DNA of 64,000 nt from Escherichia phage T5_ev219: sequence record NC_134263.1; one strand, written 5' to 3'. Below, in pieces: positions 37,118 to 41,645 of the stretch (its first letter is position 1; every line of letters starts with the position of its first letter). The notes under the pieces were generated by a model. It searched no databases. It was not told the DNA's origin and saw only the letters and a list, made by a program, of their open reading frames with translations. The position numbers were made by a program, and so were the translations under genes.

Positions 37118-37206
37118 TGGCGGAAGAAGTGGGAATCGAACCCACAAGGCTATATTTCAAACCGACAGATTAGCAATCTGCTGCAATACCGTTATGCTAT
37201 TCTTCC
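37118..37206 (-). tRNA. tRNA-Ser (GCT), class II
   Basis: 89 nt; perfect acceptor; loop TTGCTAA. Confidence 0.65.
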
Positions 37207-37310: not shown

Positions 37311-37745
37311 TTAATTGTCTAGCAAATTTTCACCAGCAGGATCATTATCCCCAACAGCTACCAATTTAAAAGGTAATAATTTCAGTTGCTTTAATAACGC
37401 TTTTCCTGGAGAAGAACCCAACATTGCTAGGGCTGGATAACCAGCGTTATGTAACGCAACTGCCTTAAATACAGATTCAGCGATCAATACTACTTTTTCA
37501 TCTCCATTGAGAGTTTCTAGTCCCCATACACACTGGGTAGTAGAATAAGTAAAATATTTAGCTTCAAAGGGACACTTACCATGACCTTTTGGAGCAGAAG
37601 GATTATAAGTTTGATAGCCCCTCAACATCCCAGAGAAGTCATACAACGGGACTGTTAGCCATCCTTCCGGACTTAACCAGCAATGATATTTTTCTGTATC
37701 AAATCCTCTAGATAAGAGGTGCTGTGTTAGCTCATCAACATTCAT
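37311..37745 (-). CDS. Toprim-domain protein (primase-like C-terminal fragment)
   Basis: Track ORF trimmed to Met18 because Met1 lies inside the promoter; LIAESV...ALHNAG...AMLGSS...VGDNDPAG resembles DnaG Toprim motifs. Confidence 0.45.
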   Translation of the reverse strand: MNVDELTQHLLSRGFDTEKYHCWLSPEGWLTVPLYDFSGMLRGYQTYNPSAPKGHGKCPFEAKYFTYSTTQCVWGLETLNGDEKVVLIAESVFKAVALHNAGYPALAMLGSSPGKALLKQLKLLPFKLVAVGDNDPAGENLLDN

Positions 37746-37920
37746 ATCTGGTTCCTCTCTCAAATTTATAGATATATTATACAGAGAATTTAGCATTCAA
37801 GCAATCAAATTTTTTAACTTTTTAGAGGAAAATCATAGGGCACTTAAGGGCAGCAGATAAGTGGTGAGGACCAAAATTTGTGACCCCACTAAAAATCCGG
37901 GGGCAATTTTTAAAGACCCT

Positions 37921-37949
37921 TTGACATTTTCGCCGGGGTAGTGTAAAGT
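37921..37949 (+). promoter_or_regulatory. sigma70-like promoter for the plus-strand cassette
   Basis: TTGACA, 17-bp spacer, TAAAGT. Confidence 0.45.
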
Positions 37950-38011
37950 ATATGTTATGGATGAGTGATCAAAGAGACACACATTTTCTATATACTAGGA
38001 GGTGTCAAAAA

Positions 38012-38992
38012 ATGACAGAAGAAGTAGCTAAGAGTCCTGAGACCGTCGCTAGCGTAGCAGCAGAACTGCATCGTCACGAGGAATCAGATAAGAAAAAGTG
38101 GGAGAAGGTCAGAGCCTACGAAGAAGAACATCGTGAACACGATGATAAAGATGAAGAAGATGACGATGATGTACGTTGTCATAAATATGGAAAATATAAA
38201 ATGCAAGAACCAGTAAACGTATTTACTAACGGCTTCCCTGGCATGGGTGCATTCCCAGCTAACGCAAGTGCTTTCGGTGGAGAAGGTATGGGTCTATTCG
38301 GAGCTATCCTAATCGGTGCTCTATTAACCGGCGGATTTGGTGGTTTTGGTGGTTTTGGTCGTGGTGCTGGCGTTGCCGCTGAAGGAACCGCTGTGGACGC
38401 GATCCTTTCTAACCAGGATACTGCAAGTATTCTAGCTGCAATCAATACTACTCGTACAGAAGCTAACCAGGGCACTGGGGCTGTTCTAAGTGCAGTAAAC
38501 GGTGTGGGAGCTGCTCAAGCTGCTAGCACTCAGCAAGTTCTGACTACTATCTACGGTACAGGTGCTAATCTGTCAAACCAGATCTGTGCTGAAACTCGTA
38601 ACGTTATTCAGGGTCAGTTCGATCTTTCTCGTCAGATGGATCAATCTTTCGCTGCTAACCAGATAGCACGTGCTCAAGATAAGTTTGACTCTGCTCAGAT
38701 TGCTTTCCAGCAGTCTATTCAGACCAACAACCAGTTTGCCGCTGTTCAGGCTCAGATGTGCGCTAACCAGAACGCTATCGAACGTCAGCTTGCTGAATGT
38801 TGCTGTGAGCTTCAGACTGCGATCGCTGGTGTAACTACTGCACGTATCCAGGACGAACTGAATGAATGCCGTCTGCGCGAAGCAATCGCTGCAGGTAGCG
38901 GTGCAAATGGTCAGGTAATCAACCAAATCGCTGTAAGTCTTGGTGCTATCACTCAGACTCTGGCTGGTCTGCAGGCTAAACTGCCGGCTTAA
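38012..38992 (+). CDS. Gly/Ala/Gln/Asn-rich low-complexity protein with central hydrophobic Gly-rich segment
   Basis: Track ORF trimmed to MTEEVAK with AGGAGG RBS; acidic N-terminus, GMGLFGAILIGALLTGGFGGFGGFG segment, Q/A/N-rich C-terminus with ECCCEL. Confidence 0.6.
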   Translation: MTEEVAKSPETVASVAAELHRHEESDKKKWEKVRAYEEEHREHDDKDEEDDDDVRCHKYGKYKMQEPVNVFTNGFPGMGAFPANASAFGGEGMGLFGAILIGALLTGGFGGFGGFGRGAGVAAEGTAVDAILSNQDTASILAAINTTRTEANQGTGAVLSAVNGVGAAQAASTQQVLTTIYGTGANLSNQICAETRNVIQGQFDLSRQMDQSFAANQIARAQDKFDSAQIAFQQSIQTNNQFAAVQAQMCANQNAIERQLAECCCELQTAIAGVTTARIQDELNECRLREAIAAGSGANGQVINQIAVSLGAITQTLAGLQAKLPA

Positions 38993-39013
38993 AATTAAGG
39001 GGAGGAGCCCATT

Positions 39014-39430
39014 ATGAGTAAATATGGTTTTGTGAACAACGGATTTAATCAACCAATGGGCTCCCAGCAGCCCGTTCCGGGTCTGGATAATCCTTACCTA
39101 CAACAGTTGCAACAGCGTTTAGCAGAAGCGCAACAGATGCAGCAACAACTCCAGCAAAACCCTGGAAGTGTGAGTCCTATGCAAATGATGCAGCAAATGA
39201 GCGGGCAGTCGCAAATGCCTCAACAAATGCATCAACAGGTGACTCAGCAGCAAGTTCAGCAGCAAACCCAACAACCGCAGGTTTCTGCGGAAGGACAGGC
39301 AGTACTAGCCCTTTTCGAAGACTTCGCAAAGACAGAGGATGGGAAGCAGCTTGTATCACTTATGGGTAAGTTTAATAGCTTCTGCCAAAGCCAAATTGCA
39401 AAAGCTCAAAATAGCGGTAATAACTCCTAA
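39014..39430 (+). CDS. glutamine-rich low-complexity protein
   Basis: 138 aa; GGGAGG RBS; poly-Q/QQ-rich middle. Confidence 0.55.
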   Translation: MSKYGFVNNGFNQPMGSQQPVPGLDNPYLQQLQQRLAEAQQMQQQLQQNPGSVSPMQMMQQMSGQSQMPQQMHQQVTQQQVQQQTQQPQVSAEGQAVLALFEDFAKTEDGKQLVSLMGKFNSFCQSQIAKAQNSGNNS

Positions 39431-39439
39431 GGAGGAATT

Positions 39440-39634
39440 ATGTGTTGCAGAAAATCTGTTTCGTGCTGCCCAATGCCTGTAGCACGTTGTTGCTCTCCAG
39501 CAATGTTTACGCAAATACCGGCGTTCAATCCGTTTGCCTTTAAGCCTACTCTTATCCTGCCCCCTAGAGTAGATTTTCAGTCAAGATTGGCCTCCCGTAT
39601 GGGTGGTTGCTGTAACAAGAGTATATGGTTCTAA
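39440..39634 (+). CDS. Cys-rich small protein with four CC doublets
   Basis: 64 aa; AAGGAGG RBS; MCCRK..SCCP..RCCSP...GGCCNK. Confidence 0.5.
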   Translation: MCCRKSVSCCPMPVARCCSPAMFTQIPAFNPFAFKPTLILPPRVDFQSRLASRMGGCCNKSIWF

Positions 39635-39649
39635 GGAACCAAACAATAA

Positions 39650-39686
39650 AGCCCCTAGTCGAAAGACTTAGGGGCTTTTCTTTTAT
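39650..39686 (+). terminator. rho-independent terminator of the plus-strand cassette
   Basis: GC-rich hairpin followed by TTTTCTTTT. Confidence 0.7.
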
Positions 39687-39687
39687 C

Positions 39688-39735
39688 TTAAATACAGAAA
39701 AGCCCTGCGCTCTCCAGGGAACGCAGGGCTTACTT
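39688..39735 (-). terminator. rho-independent terminator downstream of SPFH gene
   Basis: 8-bp stem gccctgcg/cgcagggc then U-run on minus strand. Confidence 0.65.
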
Positions 39736-39754
39736 CGAATATTACGTGTGGGTA

Positions 39755-40702
39755 TTACTTGTTACGCATATCCATAATCATCTGGCCATCGTAACCAGTG
39801 CCAACCACAGTCTGCGGTACGCCACCTTGATATTTCTGAGCACGAATCATCTCAACTTCCAGTTGTTTCCAACGAATCATCTCAGGAGTAATGGTACGTT
39901 GCAGTGCGGCGTTAGCTTCAGCTTCTTTCTTAGCTGCGTACAGTTTAGCATCTGCGTCACGTTCATTAGCGATAGCTTGGTTGTTGCGAGCTTCACGATC
40001 TGCTTCTGCTTGTTTAACTTTTTGCTGTGCTTCCTGTTCAACACGAGCTAATTCAGCTTTAGCAGCATTAACCTGTTCTTCACGAACTTTGGTATTCTGT
40101 ACCTGTTCCATGATTACCGGTGGCAAAGTAATATCCTGAAGGAATACCTGCTTAACTGTGTAACCATATGGGCGTGCATACTCTTCAACTTCCTGTTGAA
40201 TTGCAGTTTGCAATTGAGCCTGAATTTTAGCATCAAACAAATCTTGTGCTTTAGGTACAGACTTACCAAACTCACGAATAGTAGACAGTAATTTTTCAGT
40301 TACATACTTGTCTAGTGCCTGATCCTGAGTACCTGCATTAATACGGTTAATCGGTGCCTTAGAACCATCAAACTGCAACATAACAGTCAGGTCAACAGTG
40401 GATTTAAACTTATCCTGACTAGGAACCTGAAGTTTATCTAATTTTACAGCAATATCTTTTGTACTGAAAGTATCGAAAGATGCAAACGGGTTTACAATAT
40501 GGAAACCAGGTAATACTGGATTAGGGTCTACTTTACCCAGGAATGTTTGAGTTTTAACCGTACCATCAGAAACAATAGTATATGAATTAAAAGCTAGGAT
40601 TAAACCTGCTAAACCAACTACAGCACCAATCCCCCAACGTTTAATAGTACGAATTACTTTCTGCTCAGAAGTTAGTTCTTTCATATTTTTAGTATTAAAC
40701 AT
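39755..40702 (-). CDS. SPFH/band-7 (prohibitin/HflC-like) membrane protein
   Basis: 315 aa; N-terminal TM, SPFH-like core, long Ala/Glu/Gln-rich coiled-coil tail; AAGGAA RBS. Confidence 0.65.
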   Translation of the reverse strand: MFNTKNMKELTSEQKVIRTIKRWGIGAVVGLAGLILAFNSYTIVSDGTVKTQTFLGKVDPNPVLPGFHIVNPFASFDTFSTKDIAVKLDKLQVPSQDKFKSTVDLTVMLQFDGSKAPINRINAGTQDQALDKYVTEKLLSTIREFGKSVPKAQDLFDAKIQAQLQTAIQQEVEEYARPYGYTVKQVFLQDITLPPVIMEQVQNTKVREEQVNAAKAELARVEQEAQQKVKQAEADREARNNQAIANERDADAKLYAAKKEAEANAALQRTITPEMIRWKQLEVEMIRAQKYQGGVPQTVVGTGYDGQMIMDMRNK

Positions 40703-40811: not shown

Positions 40812-41313
40812 TTTAAGTATTTTTAAGAACTCTCGTAAAAACTCTTAAAAATACAGACGATACCGGGAGAGTCATAAGTCTCACTCATTAAGTATTTCAA
40901 GACAAAATACAGTAACGTCTATTATTTTCCAGTTTAAGTCAGGGTGACTTAGTGGTTATGTCCTGCGGTATATTGAGGACTCGGTTAGGCTTGGGGTCAT
41001 GACTTCCCGCCTTTTGCTGCTACTCAACAGGAGTTATCGCGAATTACCTGTGCTATTGTGCACCATTAGTGACATCTCTCATGTCAGCATTTCCCACTTT
41101 GTGGATAGCTTGAAAAACTACTCCGATATGGAGAAAGAACTTCACTATCCTAGAATACCTTCTAAAGTTCTTCTTTAGCCTGGACATAGTTAAATCGTAA
41201 TAAAACTATTCAGCAGACTGGTTGGTTAGTCTGGAACCAACTACCGCGTGGTTTAGGCAGTGCGCAACTAACCTCGGAAGCTTTTACGTTAAAAGCATCA
41301 GTTATCCAGTTCT

Positions 41314-41385
41314 TACCGACCGTAGGATTCGAACCTACATCTTCCACCAGTTACGGCTTGGTAATACCAATTATACTAGGACGGC
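41314..41385 (-). tRNA. tRNA-like element (no encoded CCA; possible pseudogene)
   Basis: T arm GTAGG-TTCGAAT-CCTAC; acceptor with one mismatch; non-canonical anticodon loop. Confidence 0.3.
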
Positions 41386-41645
41386 AGTGTTACTACATAA
41401 GTGATTTCCACACCCCACTATTTATAAATTAGAGAAGAGTTTAGGGGAGAGGTTTCAGACGCCCCATTTTACACGTTCTAGCCACTAACCGGGATTGCCG
41501 CCCCCTGTGTACTAGTTTTCCAACTAACCCACCGACTCTATTCAATGCGCTCCGGTTGGGATTCTGCACTCAGCGTAATCGGCTCGCTGTTCTCTAATTT
41601 ATGAATATATTATACAGAATTTATAGGCATTTAGCAAATAAATTT

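Follow-up and report, generated by a model that had tools for sequence, protein, structure and literature searches.

A portable three-gene cassette encoding a cysteine-triplet protein in T5-like and unrelated phages

We analysed a 64,000-nucleotide (nt) stretch of Escherichia phage T5_ev219 (NC_134263.1), hereafter the window, and describe a cassette of three plus-strand genes, p1, p2, and p3, that lies within a minus-strand region. The window derives from a BF23/T5-like phage; over positions 37700-39900 it is 97.7% identical to ESCO30, 96.9% to BF23, and 95.5% to T5 (megablast), and T5 genome coordinates are nearly in register with its own. The three genes are orthologues of T5.077, T5.078, and T5.079 and carry the BF23 labels "ORF 326aa", "ORF 138aa", and "ORF 64aa" (ORF, open reading frame); all three are already on record as hypothetical proteins in the deposited BF23/T5 entries. 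A preliminary description, made from the sequence, had noted an opposite-strand trio between a tRNA cluster and an SPFH gene, with its own promoter, strong ribosome-binding sites, tight spacing, and a clean terminator. Every one of these elements is present, as are the flanking minus-strand tRNA genes, toprim-like ORF, and SPFH gene. The cassette comprises the following features:

37921-37949, plus strand: sigma-70-type promoter TTGACA-17-TAAAGT, with 10 of 12 consensus matches
38012-38992, plus strand: p1, 326 amino acids (aa), homologue of T5.077 and BF23 "ORF 326aa"
38201-38203, plus strand: conserved internal Met64 codon of p1, which in alignments coincides with the initiator Met of short distant homologues (224-283 aa)
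38285-38359, plus strand: transmembrane-like Gly-rich segment of p1, approximately residues 92-116 (GMGLFGAILIGALLTGGFGGFGGFG), from Kyte-Doolittle hydropathy and flank charges
38798-38806, plus strand: codons of Cys263-Cys264-Cys265 in p1 (TGT TGC TGT), the family-defining CCC motif
39014-39430, plus strand: p2, 138 aa, homologue of T5.078
39440-39634, plus strand: p3, 64 aa, homologue of T5.079, a Pro/aromatic-rich peptide starting with MCC
39648-39686, plus strand: Rho-independent terminator with a bulged 13-bp stem, a GAAA loop, and a U-run

The genes p1-p3 form one operon with a sigma-70-type promoter, annotated as early in T5, and a terminator. The promoter coincides with the annotated P12 of T5 and BF23 (an early promoter; 'putative early promoter T5P21' is given at the homologous position), and no further site of the TTGACA/TAAAGT type was found in 37700-39800. 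Shine-Dalgarno (SD) sequences precede all three starts (AGGAGG for the p1 ATG at 38012, GGAGG for the p2 ATG at 39014, and AGGAGG for the p3 ATG at 39440); the p1 start corrects the mechanical ORF list, in which this frame begins at 37952 (346 aa). Gaps between the genes are 21 nt (p1-p2) and 9 nt (p2-p3). The terminator hairpin at 39648-39678 with its U-run has a folding energy of -20.2 kcal/mol (z = -4.9; 0 of 200 shuffles as good) and corresponds to ter1 of T5, which is annotated as efficient and bidirectional. The window trio and the T5.077-T5.079 and BF23 genes are direct orthologues at 95-98% DNA identity and have P12, ter1, and the flanking genes in common. No difference of substance separates the trio from its orthologues in T5, BF23, and SP15 (ORF76/ORF77 in the last; PHROGs 8119 and 7894), all of which are named 'hypothetical' or 'unknown function'. 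No function is proposed in the main texts found by literature searches on T5.077-079, and the text of the HIDEN-SEQ paper does not mention a T5-like phage.

p1, p2, and p3 are genuine genes. They co-occur, in 221, 221, and 220 phage records, respectively, with a nearly identical host breakdown. In comparisons with other T5-like phages, the ratio of non-synonymous to synonymous substitution rates (dN/dS) is 0.11-0.20 for p1, with up to about 52 non-synonymous versus 87 synonymous changes, and 0.15-0.31 for p2. For p3 the ratio is uninformative (0-7 changes), and the peptide is present at at least 80% coverage and at least 80% identity in 219 of the 220 records. The preliminary description had left room for ORFs that are untranslated or not conserved; as to conservation, the selection on p1 and p2 (dN/dS 0.11-0.31) and the retention of p3 speak against this. 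Purifying selection on p1 and p2, conservation of p3, and a trio in the same order in four other phage backbones together show that the three frames are more than chance ORFs. In these other backbones the products are of similar sizes:

Pseudomonas siphovirus KPP23 (L003): 320, 143, and 60 aa, with terminator-like hairpins on both sides
N4-like phage with a virion RNA polymerase: 300, 130, and 49 aa, the third product starting with MCCNTRG...
Lambdoid phage: 322, 134, and 91 aa, encoded on the opposite strand, with the Q antiterminator on one side and holin-lysozyme-Rz on the other, the third product with ...RCCPMPVPRCCG...
tRNA-rich 57-kb contig (L022): 312, 106, and 65 aa, the third product starting with MCGCGCSG...

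Identity of p1 among the trio lineages is only 36-53%, and a Cys-cluster peptide is kept at the p3 position in five divergent lineages at 25-45% identity. The trio is horizontally portable as a unit across at least five unrelated phage backbones. Among T5-likes, the cassette is present in 214 of the 447 records that match the flanks. Conservation and synteny across T5-like genomes had been suggested as a check; the ordered trio is kept as a unit even outside T5, but within the T5-like group it is found in only about 214 of 447 records. Since phages far removed from the T5 group also keep the three genes together, their partial conservation within that group points to an accessory module and not to spurious ORFs, and we are highly confident that the cassette is an accessory mobile module of real genes. 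A search of complete E. coli genomes found no relatives of the lambdoid version. tRNA genes also occur near the trio elsewhere; the 57-kb contig has 14 of them, the N4-like phage 3, and the surroundings of the lambdoid copy one. In KPP23, the third gene (ORF072, L003 5969-6151) is annotated in the wrong frame, the homologous frame starting with MCCNQPVPQCCGP. Directly after the KPP23 trio (L003 6244-6699) comes a gene for a protein with an RNA-repair HAD domain, of the 'Swiss Army Knife' kind (Pfam HAD_SAK_2, E 2e-18), which echoes the tRNA-gene surroundings of the trio in other phages.

The G+C content of the cassette is 46-50% versus 33-40% in its flanks. At third codon positions (GC3), p1 has 0.35 versus a window median of 0.33, and only p2 (0.46) and p3 (0.43) are elevated. 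The high G+C content of the cassette thus stems mostly from amino-acid composition, and we rejected the G+C-rich island as a sign of recent horizontal transfer.

In p1, an N-terminal helix and an acidic linker are followed by a single hydrophobic segment rich in Gly and then by a polar helical rod that bears the Cys triplet. Residues 1-94 are acidic (23 D+E versus 13 K+R), the hydrophobic segment LFGAILIGALLTGGFGGFG has a Kyte-Doolittle 19-residue mean of 1.72, and the remainder is A/Q/N/T-rich (16% Ala, 10% Gly, and 8.6% Gln) with AECCCEL at residues 261-267. The acidic N-terminus, Gly-rich hydrophobic segment, A/Q/N-rich remainder, and ECCCEL of the preliminary description are accordingly all present. 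The C-terminal part has a net charge of -5 over 200 residues, and the protein ends in ...LAGLQAKLPA with no second hydrophobic segment. A heptad scan gave a coiled-coil register that is only patchy, and we therefore do not claim a canonical coiled coil for p1. The first 63 residues contain a confidently predicted helix (residues 9-45) with VAAELxxHExxD, followed by an acidic, sometimes His-rich linker. They are a lineage-specific addition, since distant members begin where Met64 aligns. An SD-like motif lies 6-8 nt before Met64 in the KPP23, N4-like, lambdoid, and L022 versions and is weak in T5-likes; judged from these alignments, Met64 may be a second p1 start. In the T5 entry AY587007, p1 is split into two ORFs (ORF072 and ORF073).

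Throughout a 17-sequence alignment (A1), an acidic residue (D/E) stands just before the hydrophobic segment and an Arg just after it. Of 102 members across the family, 77 have a C-terminal flank more positive than the N-terminal one, 20 have flanks of equal charge, and 5 have a less positive C-terminal flank. This pattern predicts an N-out/C-in orientation of p1, which by the positive-inside rule would place the CCC rod in the cytoplasm. A cytoplasmic rod would agree with p2 and p3 having neither a signal peptide nor a transmembrane (TM) segment.

The second product is 26.8% Gln, in line with the poly-Q-rich 138-aa protein of the preliminary description, and its N-terminal helix and C-terminal helical hairpin, the latter with an invariant Cys124, are conserved, whereas the Q/P/M-rich linker between them varies. 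In the p2 alignment (A2), 39 columns are invariant and concentrate at residues 28-43 and 91-130, and the C-terminal hairpin EGQAVLALFEEFAKTEDGKQLVSxMGKFNSFCQS is almost invariant. An AlphaFold2 (AF2) model has a helix at residues 27-48, a disordered Q-rich linker, and a confident hairpin at 92-133 (helices 92-105 and 108-133; predicted local distance difference test, pLDDT, 82-89); a Foldseek search of this model against the PDB returned one meaningless match (E 8.9). Maximal hydropathy is 0.46, which indicates no signal peptide or TM segment. The p2 hairpin and the last ~24 residues of p1 (NQIAVSLGAITQTLAALQAK, in which alignment A5 has 13 of its 41 invariant columns) are found only in trio-bearing lineages, and on this pattern we infer that the p1 tail and the p2 hairpin are candidate docking surfaces. 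In AY587007, p2 is named 'cAMP-dependent protein kinase catalytic subunit (kapc)', a label that has spread to ESCO30/40, JLBYU40, EH3, and others. We rejected p2 as a kinase; this 138-aa Q-rich protein has two short helical regions, no kinase family matches it in Pfam even at E <= 1, and nothing matches in NCBIfam.

The four CC doublets that had been noted in the 64-aa p3 comprise 8 Cys at residues 2-3, 9-10, 17-18, and 57-58, and Pro makes up 12.5% of the peptide. Its conserved motif is CC..CCPxPVxxCC. The peptide (start MCCRKSVSCC) has no hydrophobic h-region and no L-x-x-C lipobox, which is also true of the KPP23, N4-like, lambdoid, and L022 versions, and its maximal 19-residue hydropathy mean of 0.85 indicates no signal peptide or TM segment. 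p3 is unannotated in most of the T5-like records listed, and a profile search of 5.8 billion proteins returned only 3 clusters. To call the three products low-complexity proteins, as was first done, is apt for their extreme composition but understates their conserved motifs, namely the CCC of p1, the Cys-bearing hairpin of p2, and CC..CCPxPVxxCC in p3.

Confident family matches of the trio were limited to two PHROGs of 'unknown function', 8119 for p1 (E 6.6e-195 over residues 1-326) and 7894 for p2 (E 4.9e-79 over residues 1-138); p3 had no match in PHROGs. In Pfam, the best E-values of p1-p3 were 0.019-0.83, all far under the gathering scores, and neither NCBIfam nor PADLOC gave a match. Two distant p1 homologues had only weak coiled-coil matches to the ZorA tail in PADLOC (E 1e-3 to 5e-3). 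The initial statement that no family is recognisable for any of the three thus holds for Pfam, NCBIfam, PADLOC, and the PDB, and no confident homology to structural or lysis proteins appeared in the library and profile searches.

An exhaustive p1 profile search of 1.84 billion proteins yielded 458 representative clusters at E <= 1e-3 and 73 at E <= 1e-10. The family spans PHROGs 8119, 9288, 16490, and 9415, all of unknown function and the last three with the distant relatives, and includes proteins of Clostridium perfringens phages, one crAss-like gut phage, an Aeromonas phage, and many metagenomic phage contigs. A limited two-pattern peptide scan of GTDB representative genomes found no relatives. 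The common layout of family members is a short N-terminal part, followed by a hydrophobic segment rich in Gly and by an extended A/Q/N/S/T-rich helical region, with the core motif Q.A.CCC.[IL]K..I..DG..TR.LI. The CCC is present in 148 of the 179 members fetched and invariant in the 17 sequences of A1; in a 51-sequence alignment (A3), C265 is invariant and C263 and C264 are at least 90% conserved. In a distant AT-rich branch (L004 5263-7748; L029 3100-5405; L028 111-2281; L033 6001-8318), the CCC protein lies in a different conserved block, with a Q-rich ~125-aa protein and a small helix-turn-helix-like protein upstream and a ~95-101-aa beta-rich protein (MASP...) downstream, followed by a ~170-190-aa protein and sometimes by DUF7841. 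In the Clostridium and crAss-like phages, the downstream beta-rich protein instead starts with a Cys cluster (MTCNRRCNCCNRR, MCNCN).

The cassette has been lost in at least three independent ways among the remaining T5-likes. In mar004NP2 (L023), exactly 37789-39691 of the window is missing; the alignment runs to 37788 and resumes at 39692, with the junction ...TTATACAGAAAAGCCC..., and the deletion boundaries are marked by a direct repeat:

37779-37788: left copy of the direct repeat ATACAGA[G/A]AA at the mar004NP2 deletion boundary
39692-39701: right copy of the direct repeat ATACAGA[G/A]AA at the mar004NP2 deletion boundary

Epseptimavirus S114 lacks 37856-39602 and has kept the terminator. 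Salmonella phage SESL (L024 960-1300) lacks 38075-39443, so that P12, the ribosome-binding site, and 21 codons of p1 are joined out of frame to most of p3; the SESL cassette is a decaying remnant and a natural knock-out. A genome-wide CRISPRi-ART knock-down of T5 lists T5.077, T5.078, and T5.079 as of 'unknown function' and 'Not Fit' (PMC11879866, supplementary files 8, 16). The operon is dispensable.

On either side the cassette is bordered by a minus-strand gene:

37311-37796, minus strand: toprim-like ORF, the rad/T5.076 orthologue, adjoining the cassette
39755-40702, minus strand: SPFH/Band_7 gene (Pfam E 1.8e-17; RefSeq name 'lipoprotein')

The ORF at 37311-37796 is named 'DNA primase' in RefSeq, and the name is misleading, as the ORF has no Pfam match at E <= 1e-3. 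Its T5 orthologue T5.076 was re-annotated in the CRISPRi-ART study as the anti-retron gene rad (PMC11879866). Rad and a phage tRNA-Tyr lie within an approximately 8-kb Anti-Defense Island that was spontaneously deleted in T5n and SP15m, and deletion of this island also reduces plating on AVAST 2 (Azam et al. 2023, 10.1101/2023.03.15.532788). In SP15, ORF75 (rad) is directly followed by ORF76 (p1) and ORF77 (p2). The island was divided into nine fragments, of which F6, F7, and F8 hold tRNA-Tyr, ORF71-73, and ORF75 (10.1101/2023.03.15.532788); fragment 9 therefore plausibly holds at least p1. The cassette resembles other cargo of the T5 Anti-Defense Island in that it adjoins rad, in or at the edge of the deletable island, is dispensable in the laboratory, and is patchily distributed. 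It differs in that the trio has no similarity to a known anti-defence protein, and a three-protein membrane-associated complex would be an unusual format.

The SPFH/Band_7 gene is convergent with the cassette, and the terminator region is common to both. The gene is kept in T5-likes without the cassette and does not stand beside the trio in other phage lineages, and the two thus appear to be independent. The minus-strand SPFH terminator hairpin (39700-39731) contains a GCGC site at about 39705-39712 that is annotated in T5/BF23 as a major single-strand interruption (32.6% nick), directly downstream of the cassette. On the 5' side of the cassette, the last gene of the minus-strand tRNA cluster is located at 37118-37206. 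ARAGORN predicted 23 tRNA genes between 29239 and 41386, all on the minus strand, including an odd tRNA-Ser (ACT anticodon) located at 41313-41386. Roughly where this gene would lie in T5, AY587007 marks a tRNA pseudogene and NC_005859 a stable 'RNAX'.

Our preferred reading, which we put forward tentatively and from sequence features, is that the cassette encodes an early membrane complex, on the cytoplasmic face and with thiolate contacts, that plays a conditional role in competition or anti-defence. p1 would be inserted in the host inner membrane by its single Gly-rich hydrophobic segment, N-out/C-in, and its ~200-residue polar (A/Q/N/T/S) helical rod with the Cys-Cys-Cys would lie in the cytoplasm, where p2 and p3 would stay because they have no signal peptide or TM segment. 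p1 would oligomerise through the rod, p2 would dock on the conserved C-terminal helix of p1 by its Cys-bearing hairpin, and the Cys doublets of p3 would touch the CCC of p1 through thiolate chemistry, either by joint binding of one metal ion as in a zinc clasp or by contacts between thiols. The outcome would be a complex on the inner membrane face early in infection. Its benefit would be conditional and lie in competition, by countering host defence or excluding rival phages at the membrane, and not in replication, morphogenesis, or canonical lysis. A wider version of this reading seems to us rather doubtful; here the trio would be the form found in Enterobacterales and Pseudomonas phages of a widespread and unrecognised Cys-triplet system, usually membrane-anchored, that recruits Cys-bearing partners and acts as an anti-defence or exclusion device. 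Such a system may be carried as a mobile cassette in anti-defence islands and may use shared thiolate or metal sites at the cytoplasmic membrane face. Bolder still, the p1 family may be truly analogous in structure, within tailed phages, to the class I viral fusion proteins.

Mechanistic parallels of this proposal are the CD4/CD8-Lck zinc clasp and the Rad50 zinc hook, which are inter-protein Cys4 metal bridges; the p3 N-terminus of the 57-kb contig, MCGCGCSG, resembles that of Lck. As would be the case in our proposal, these bridges combine short Cys motifs on a membrane-anchored or coiled-coil protein with those at a partner N-terminus around one joint metal ion. The likeness would be a mechanistic analogy alone, with no homology, and the setting of the trio is bacterial as opposed to eukaryotic. 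None of the membership tests for a known kind of system gave a positive outcome.

Several observations weigh against the proposed complex. The hydrophobic segment is absent from a minority of the p1 family, which makes the CCC helix the family core and indicates that membrane anchoring is not essential to it. In the distant AT-rich branch, the downstream partner of the CCC protein is cysteine-free and beta-rich, and the CCC thus cannot generally depend on a Cys-rich partner. No metal-binding family matches the trio. The topology of p1 is predicted from the positive-inside rule. For p1 to be N-out, an N-terminal domain of ~90 residues that includes 13 K/R and lacks a signal peptide would have to be translocated, an unusual event. 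The AF2 models are of low confidence, that of p1 (17-sequence alignment) being all long helices with a pLDDT of 48.9 and that of p2 having an overall pLDDT of 62.4. The suggested anti-defence role is guilt by association, albeit consistent across lineages, and fragment 9 of the island, if the trio genes lie there, gave no rescue from retrons Ec67, Ec78, and Ec83 (10.1101/2023.03.15.532788).

Among the alternatives, it is unlikely that the cassette encodes a membrane fusion or remodelling device akin to class I fusion proteins or spanins, in which the Gly-rich segment would be a fusion peptide or anchor, the polar rod a trimeric coiled-coil hairpin, and p3 the counterpart of an o-spanin, small and rich in Pro and Cys; the module would aid envelope disruption or resealing. 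The only top PDB matches of two family profiles are class I fusion proteins. With influenza HA2, the alignment begins at residue 2-4, in the fusion peptide, and extends along the long helix (E 1e-3 to 0.3); with alphacoronavirus S2, it lies around HR1 (E 0.009-0.06). The best E-values, 9.7e-4 with profile A1 and 9.3e-3 with the broader A3, are sub-significant and explicable by a composition that both sides share, hydrophobic and Gly-rich at first and then helical and rich in N/Q/A/S/T. p1 also contains GLFGAI, which is the start of the HA2 fusion peptide, and the crAss-like homologue was labelled 'spike protein/glycoprotein' by its depositors. However, none of 51 family members matched a class I fusion protein in Pfam. 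p1 and these proteins have in common a Gly-rich hydrophobic segment, a long N/Q/A/S/T-rich helix, and a Cys cluster further on, but p1 lacks a C-terminal TM anchor and a receptor-binding subunit, its flanking charges predict a cytoplasmic rod, and the phages are non-enveloped and tailed. The resemblance is most likely compositional or convergent, and we rejected membership of p1 in the class I fusion proteins on the grounds of sub-significant homology and the missing C-terminal anchor.

The spanin side of this alternative draws on lysis genes near family members in several phages, which lie beside holin-lysozyme-Rz in L021, after a lysozyme cluster in L032, and near M15 peptidases in L033 and L029, and on the short, Pro- and Cys-rich p3. 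Rz1 is likewise short and Pro- and Cys-rich. As in the two-component spanins (lambda Rz/Rz1, T4 PseT.3/PseT.2), a membrane-anchored helical protein is paired with an adjacent small Pro/Cys-rich one; the trio differs in its extra Q-rich middle gene, the opposite predicted orientation, a p3 with no lipoprotein signal (neither signal peptide nor lipobox), and the absence of sequence similarity. An i-spanin has an N-terminal TM domain and a periplasmic coiled coil, oriented N-in/C-out; p1 has one TM-like segment and a helical C-terminal part, with flanking charges that favour N-out/C-in. The lysis genes of T5 itself, for Rz-like spanins (T5.044/045), a holin (T5.041), and an endolysin (T5.040), lie elsewhere in its genome. 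Spanins serve to disrupt the outer membrane of Gram-negative hosts, and members of the p1 family are also present in phages of Clostridium perfringens, which lacks such a membrane; knock-down of the trio carried no fitness cost. A canonical spanin or holin set was rejected because T5 has its own and the family is also found in Clostridium phages.

Quite unlikely, too, is a role in the handling of soft metals, in which Zn, Cu, Fe, or thiophilic metalloids would be sequestered, chaperoned, or sensed with the Cys residues and lineage-specific His- or Met-rich tracts as ligands. The CCC motif, the four CC doublets, and the invariant p2 Cys would suit it, and vicinal Cys pairs are typical of Hg/As-binding proteins (MerT, MerF, ArsD). 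Some p1 homologues have His-rich acidic N-terminal linkers (HHYHHHHHEH in P0014; HHHKHLHEHEHDHQHDHEHEHGH in P0243), and the T5-type p2 has a Met-rich linker (MQMMQQM...). His- and Met-richness are however lineage-specific. A ferritin-like neighbour, two genes downstream in the distant branch, was rejected because its match is weak (E 6e-4, below the gathering score) and conservation is lacking at its putative ligand residues. Pfam and NCBIfam scans of the trio revealed no domain of a transporter, reductase, or known metallochaperone, and soft-metal handling has no obvious benefit for a lytic phage.

We consider it very unlikely that the trio is a holin/antiholin-like lysis timer in which p1 is made in two forms, from Met1 and Met64, the long form restraining insertion of the short one. 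The alignment of the internal Met64 with the start of short homologues and the SD-like motifs upstream of it in four lineages would agree with two forms, and the single TM-like segment and the proximity of some homologues to lysis genes would suit a holin-like role; the T5 holin and endolysin also lie in the early region with their own promoter. Yet p1 is far larger than typical holins and has no highly charged C-terminus, no endolysin is adjacent in T5, KPP23, or the N4-like phage, and p1 lies ~18 kb from lys/holin in T5. The SD motif is weak in T5-likes, and Glu/Gly codons would yield such motifs by chance. T5 moreover has a holin, and the trio genes are dispensable.

An equally slim prospect is a membrane anchor or organiser of early phage DNA replication or transcription like p16.7 of phi29, a dispensable protein in which an N-terminal TM segment and a coiled coil precede a C-terminal binding domain. 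In its favour are the early annotation of the promoter, the TM-like segment near the N-terminus of p1 with a helical rod behind it, and the place of the p1 homologue of Clostridium phage CPD1 among early/replication-region genes (KilA, recombinase, ThyX); the module is also dispensable like p16.7. Against this, p1 has no detectable DNA-binding domain or basic surface, the C-terminal part being net negative (-5), and searches of Pfam, PHROGs, and PDB profiles gave no homology to p16.7 or similar proteins. The patchy, moron-like distribution of the cassette and its own promoter and terminator fit conditional cargo better than a replication anchor.

That the ORFs, or at least p3, are non-functional chance frames or decaying remnants is barely credible and for p1 and p2 largely refuted: about half of the T5-likes lack the cassette, knock-down had no fitness effect, and p3 is rarely called by gene finders and has an uninformative dN/dS, but purifying selection acts on p1 and p2, 219 of 220 records carry an intact p3, each of the three genes is preceded by a strong ribosome-binding site, the Cys-cluster peptide is kept in five lineages, and the p1 family comprises 458 clusters.

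The portability of the trio across backbones, the size of the p1 family with its near-invariant CCC, and the non-annotation of p3 appear unreported in the literature searched. T5 is a model phage, and its cassette lies beside one of the few experimentally defined anti-defence islands. Hosts of phages with p1-family proteins include Gram-negative, Gram-positive, and gut-anaerobe bacteria. Assignment of a function would annotate hundreds of dark-matter phage genes and could uncover a new membrane-associated route of phage-host or phage-phage conflict.

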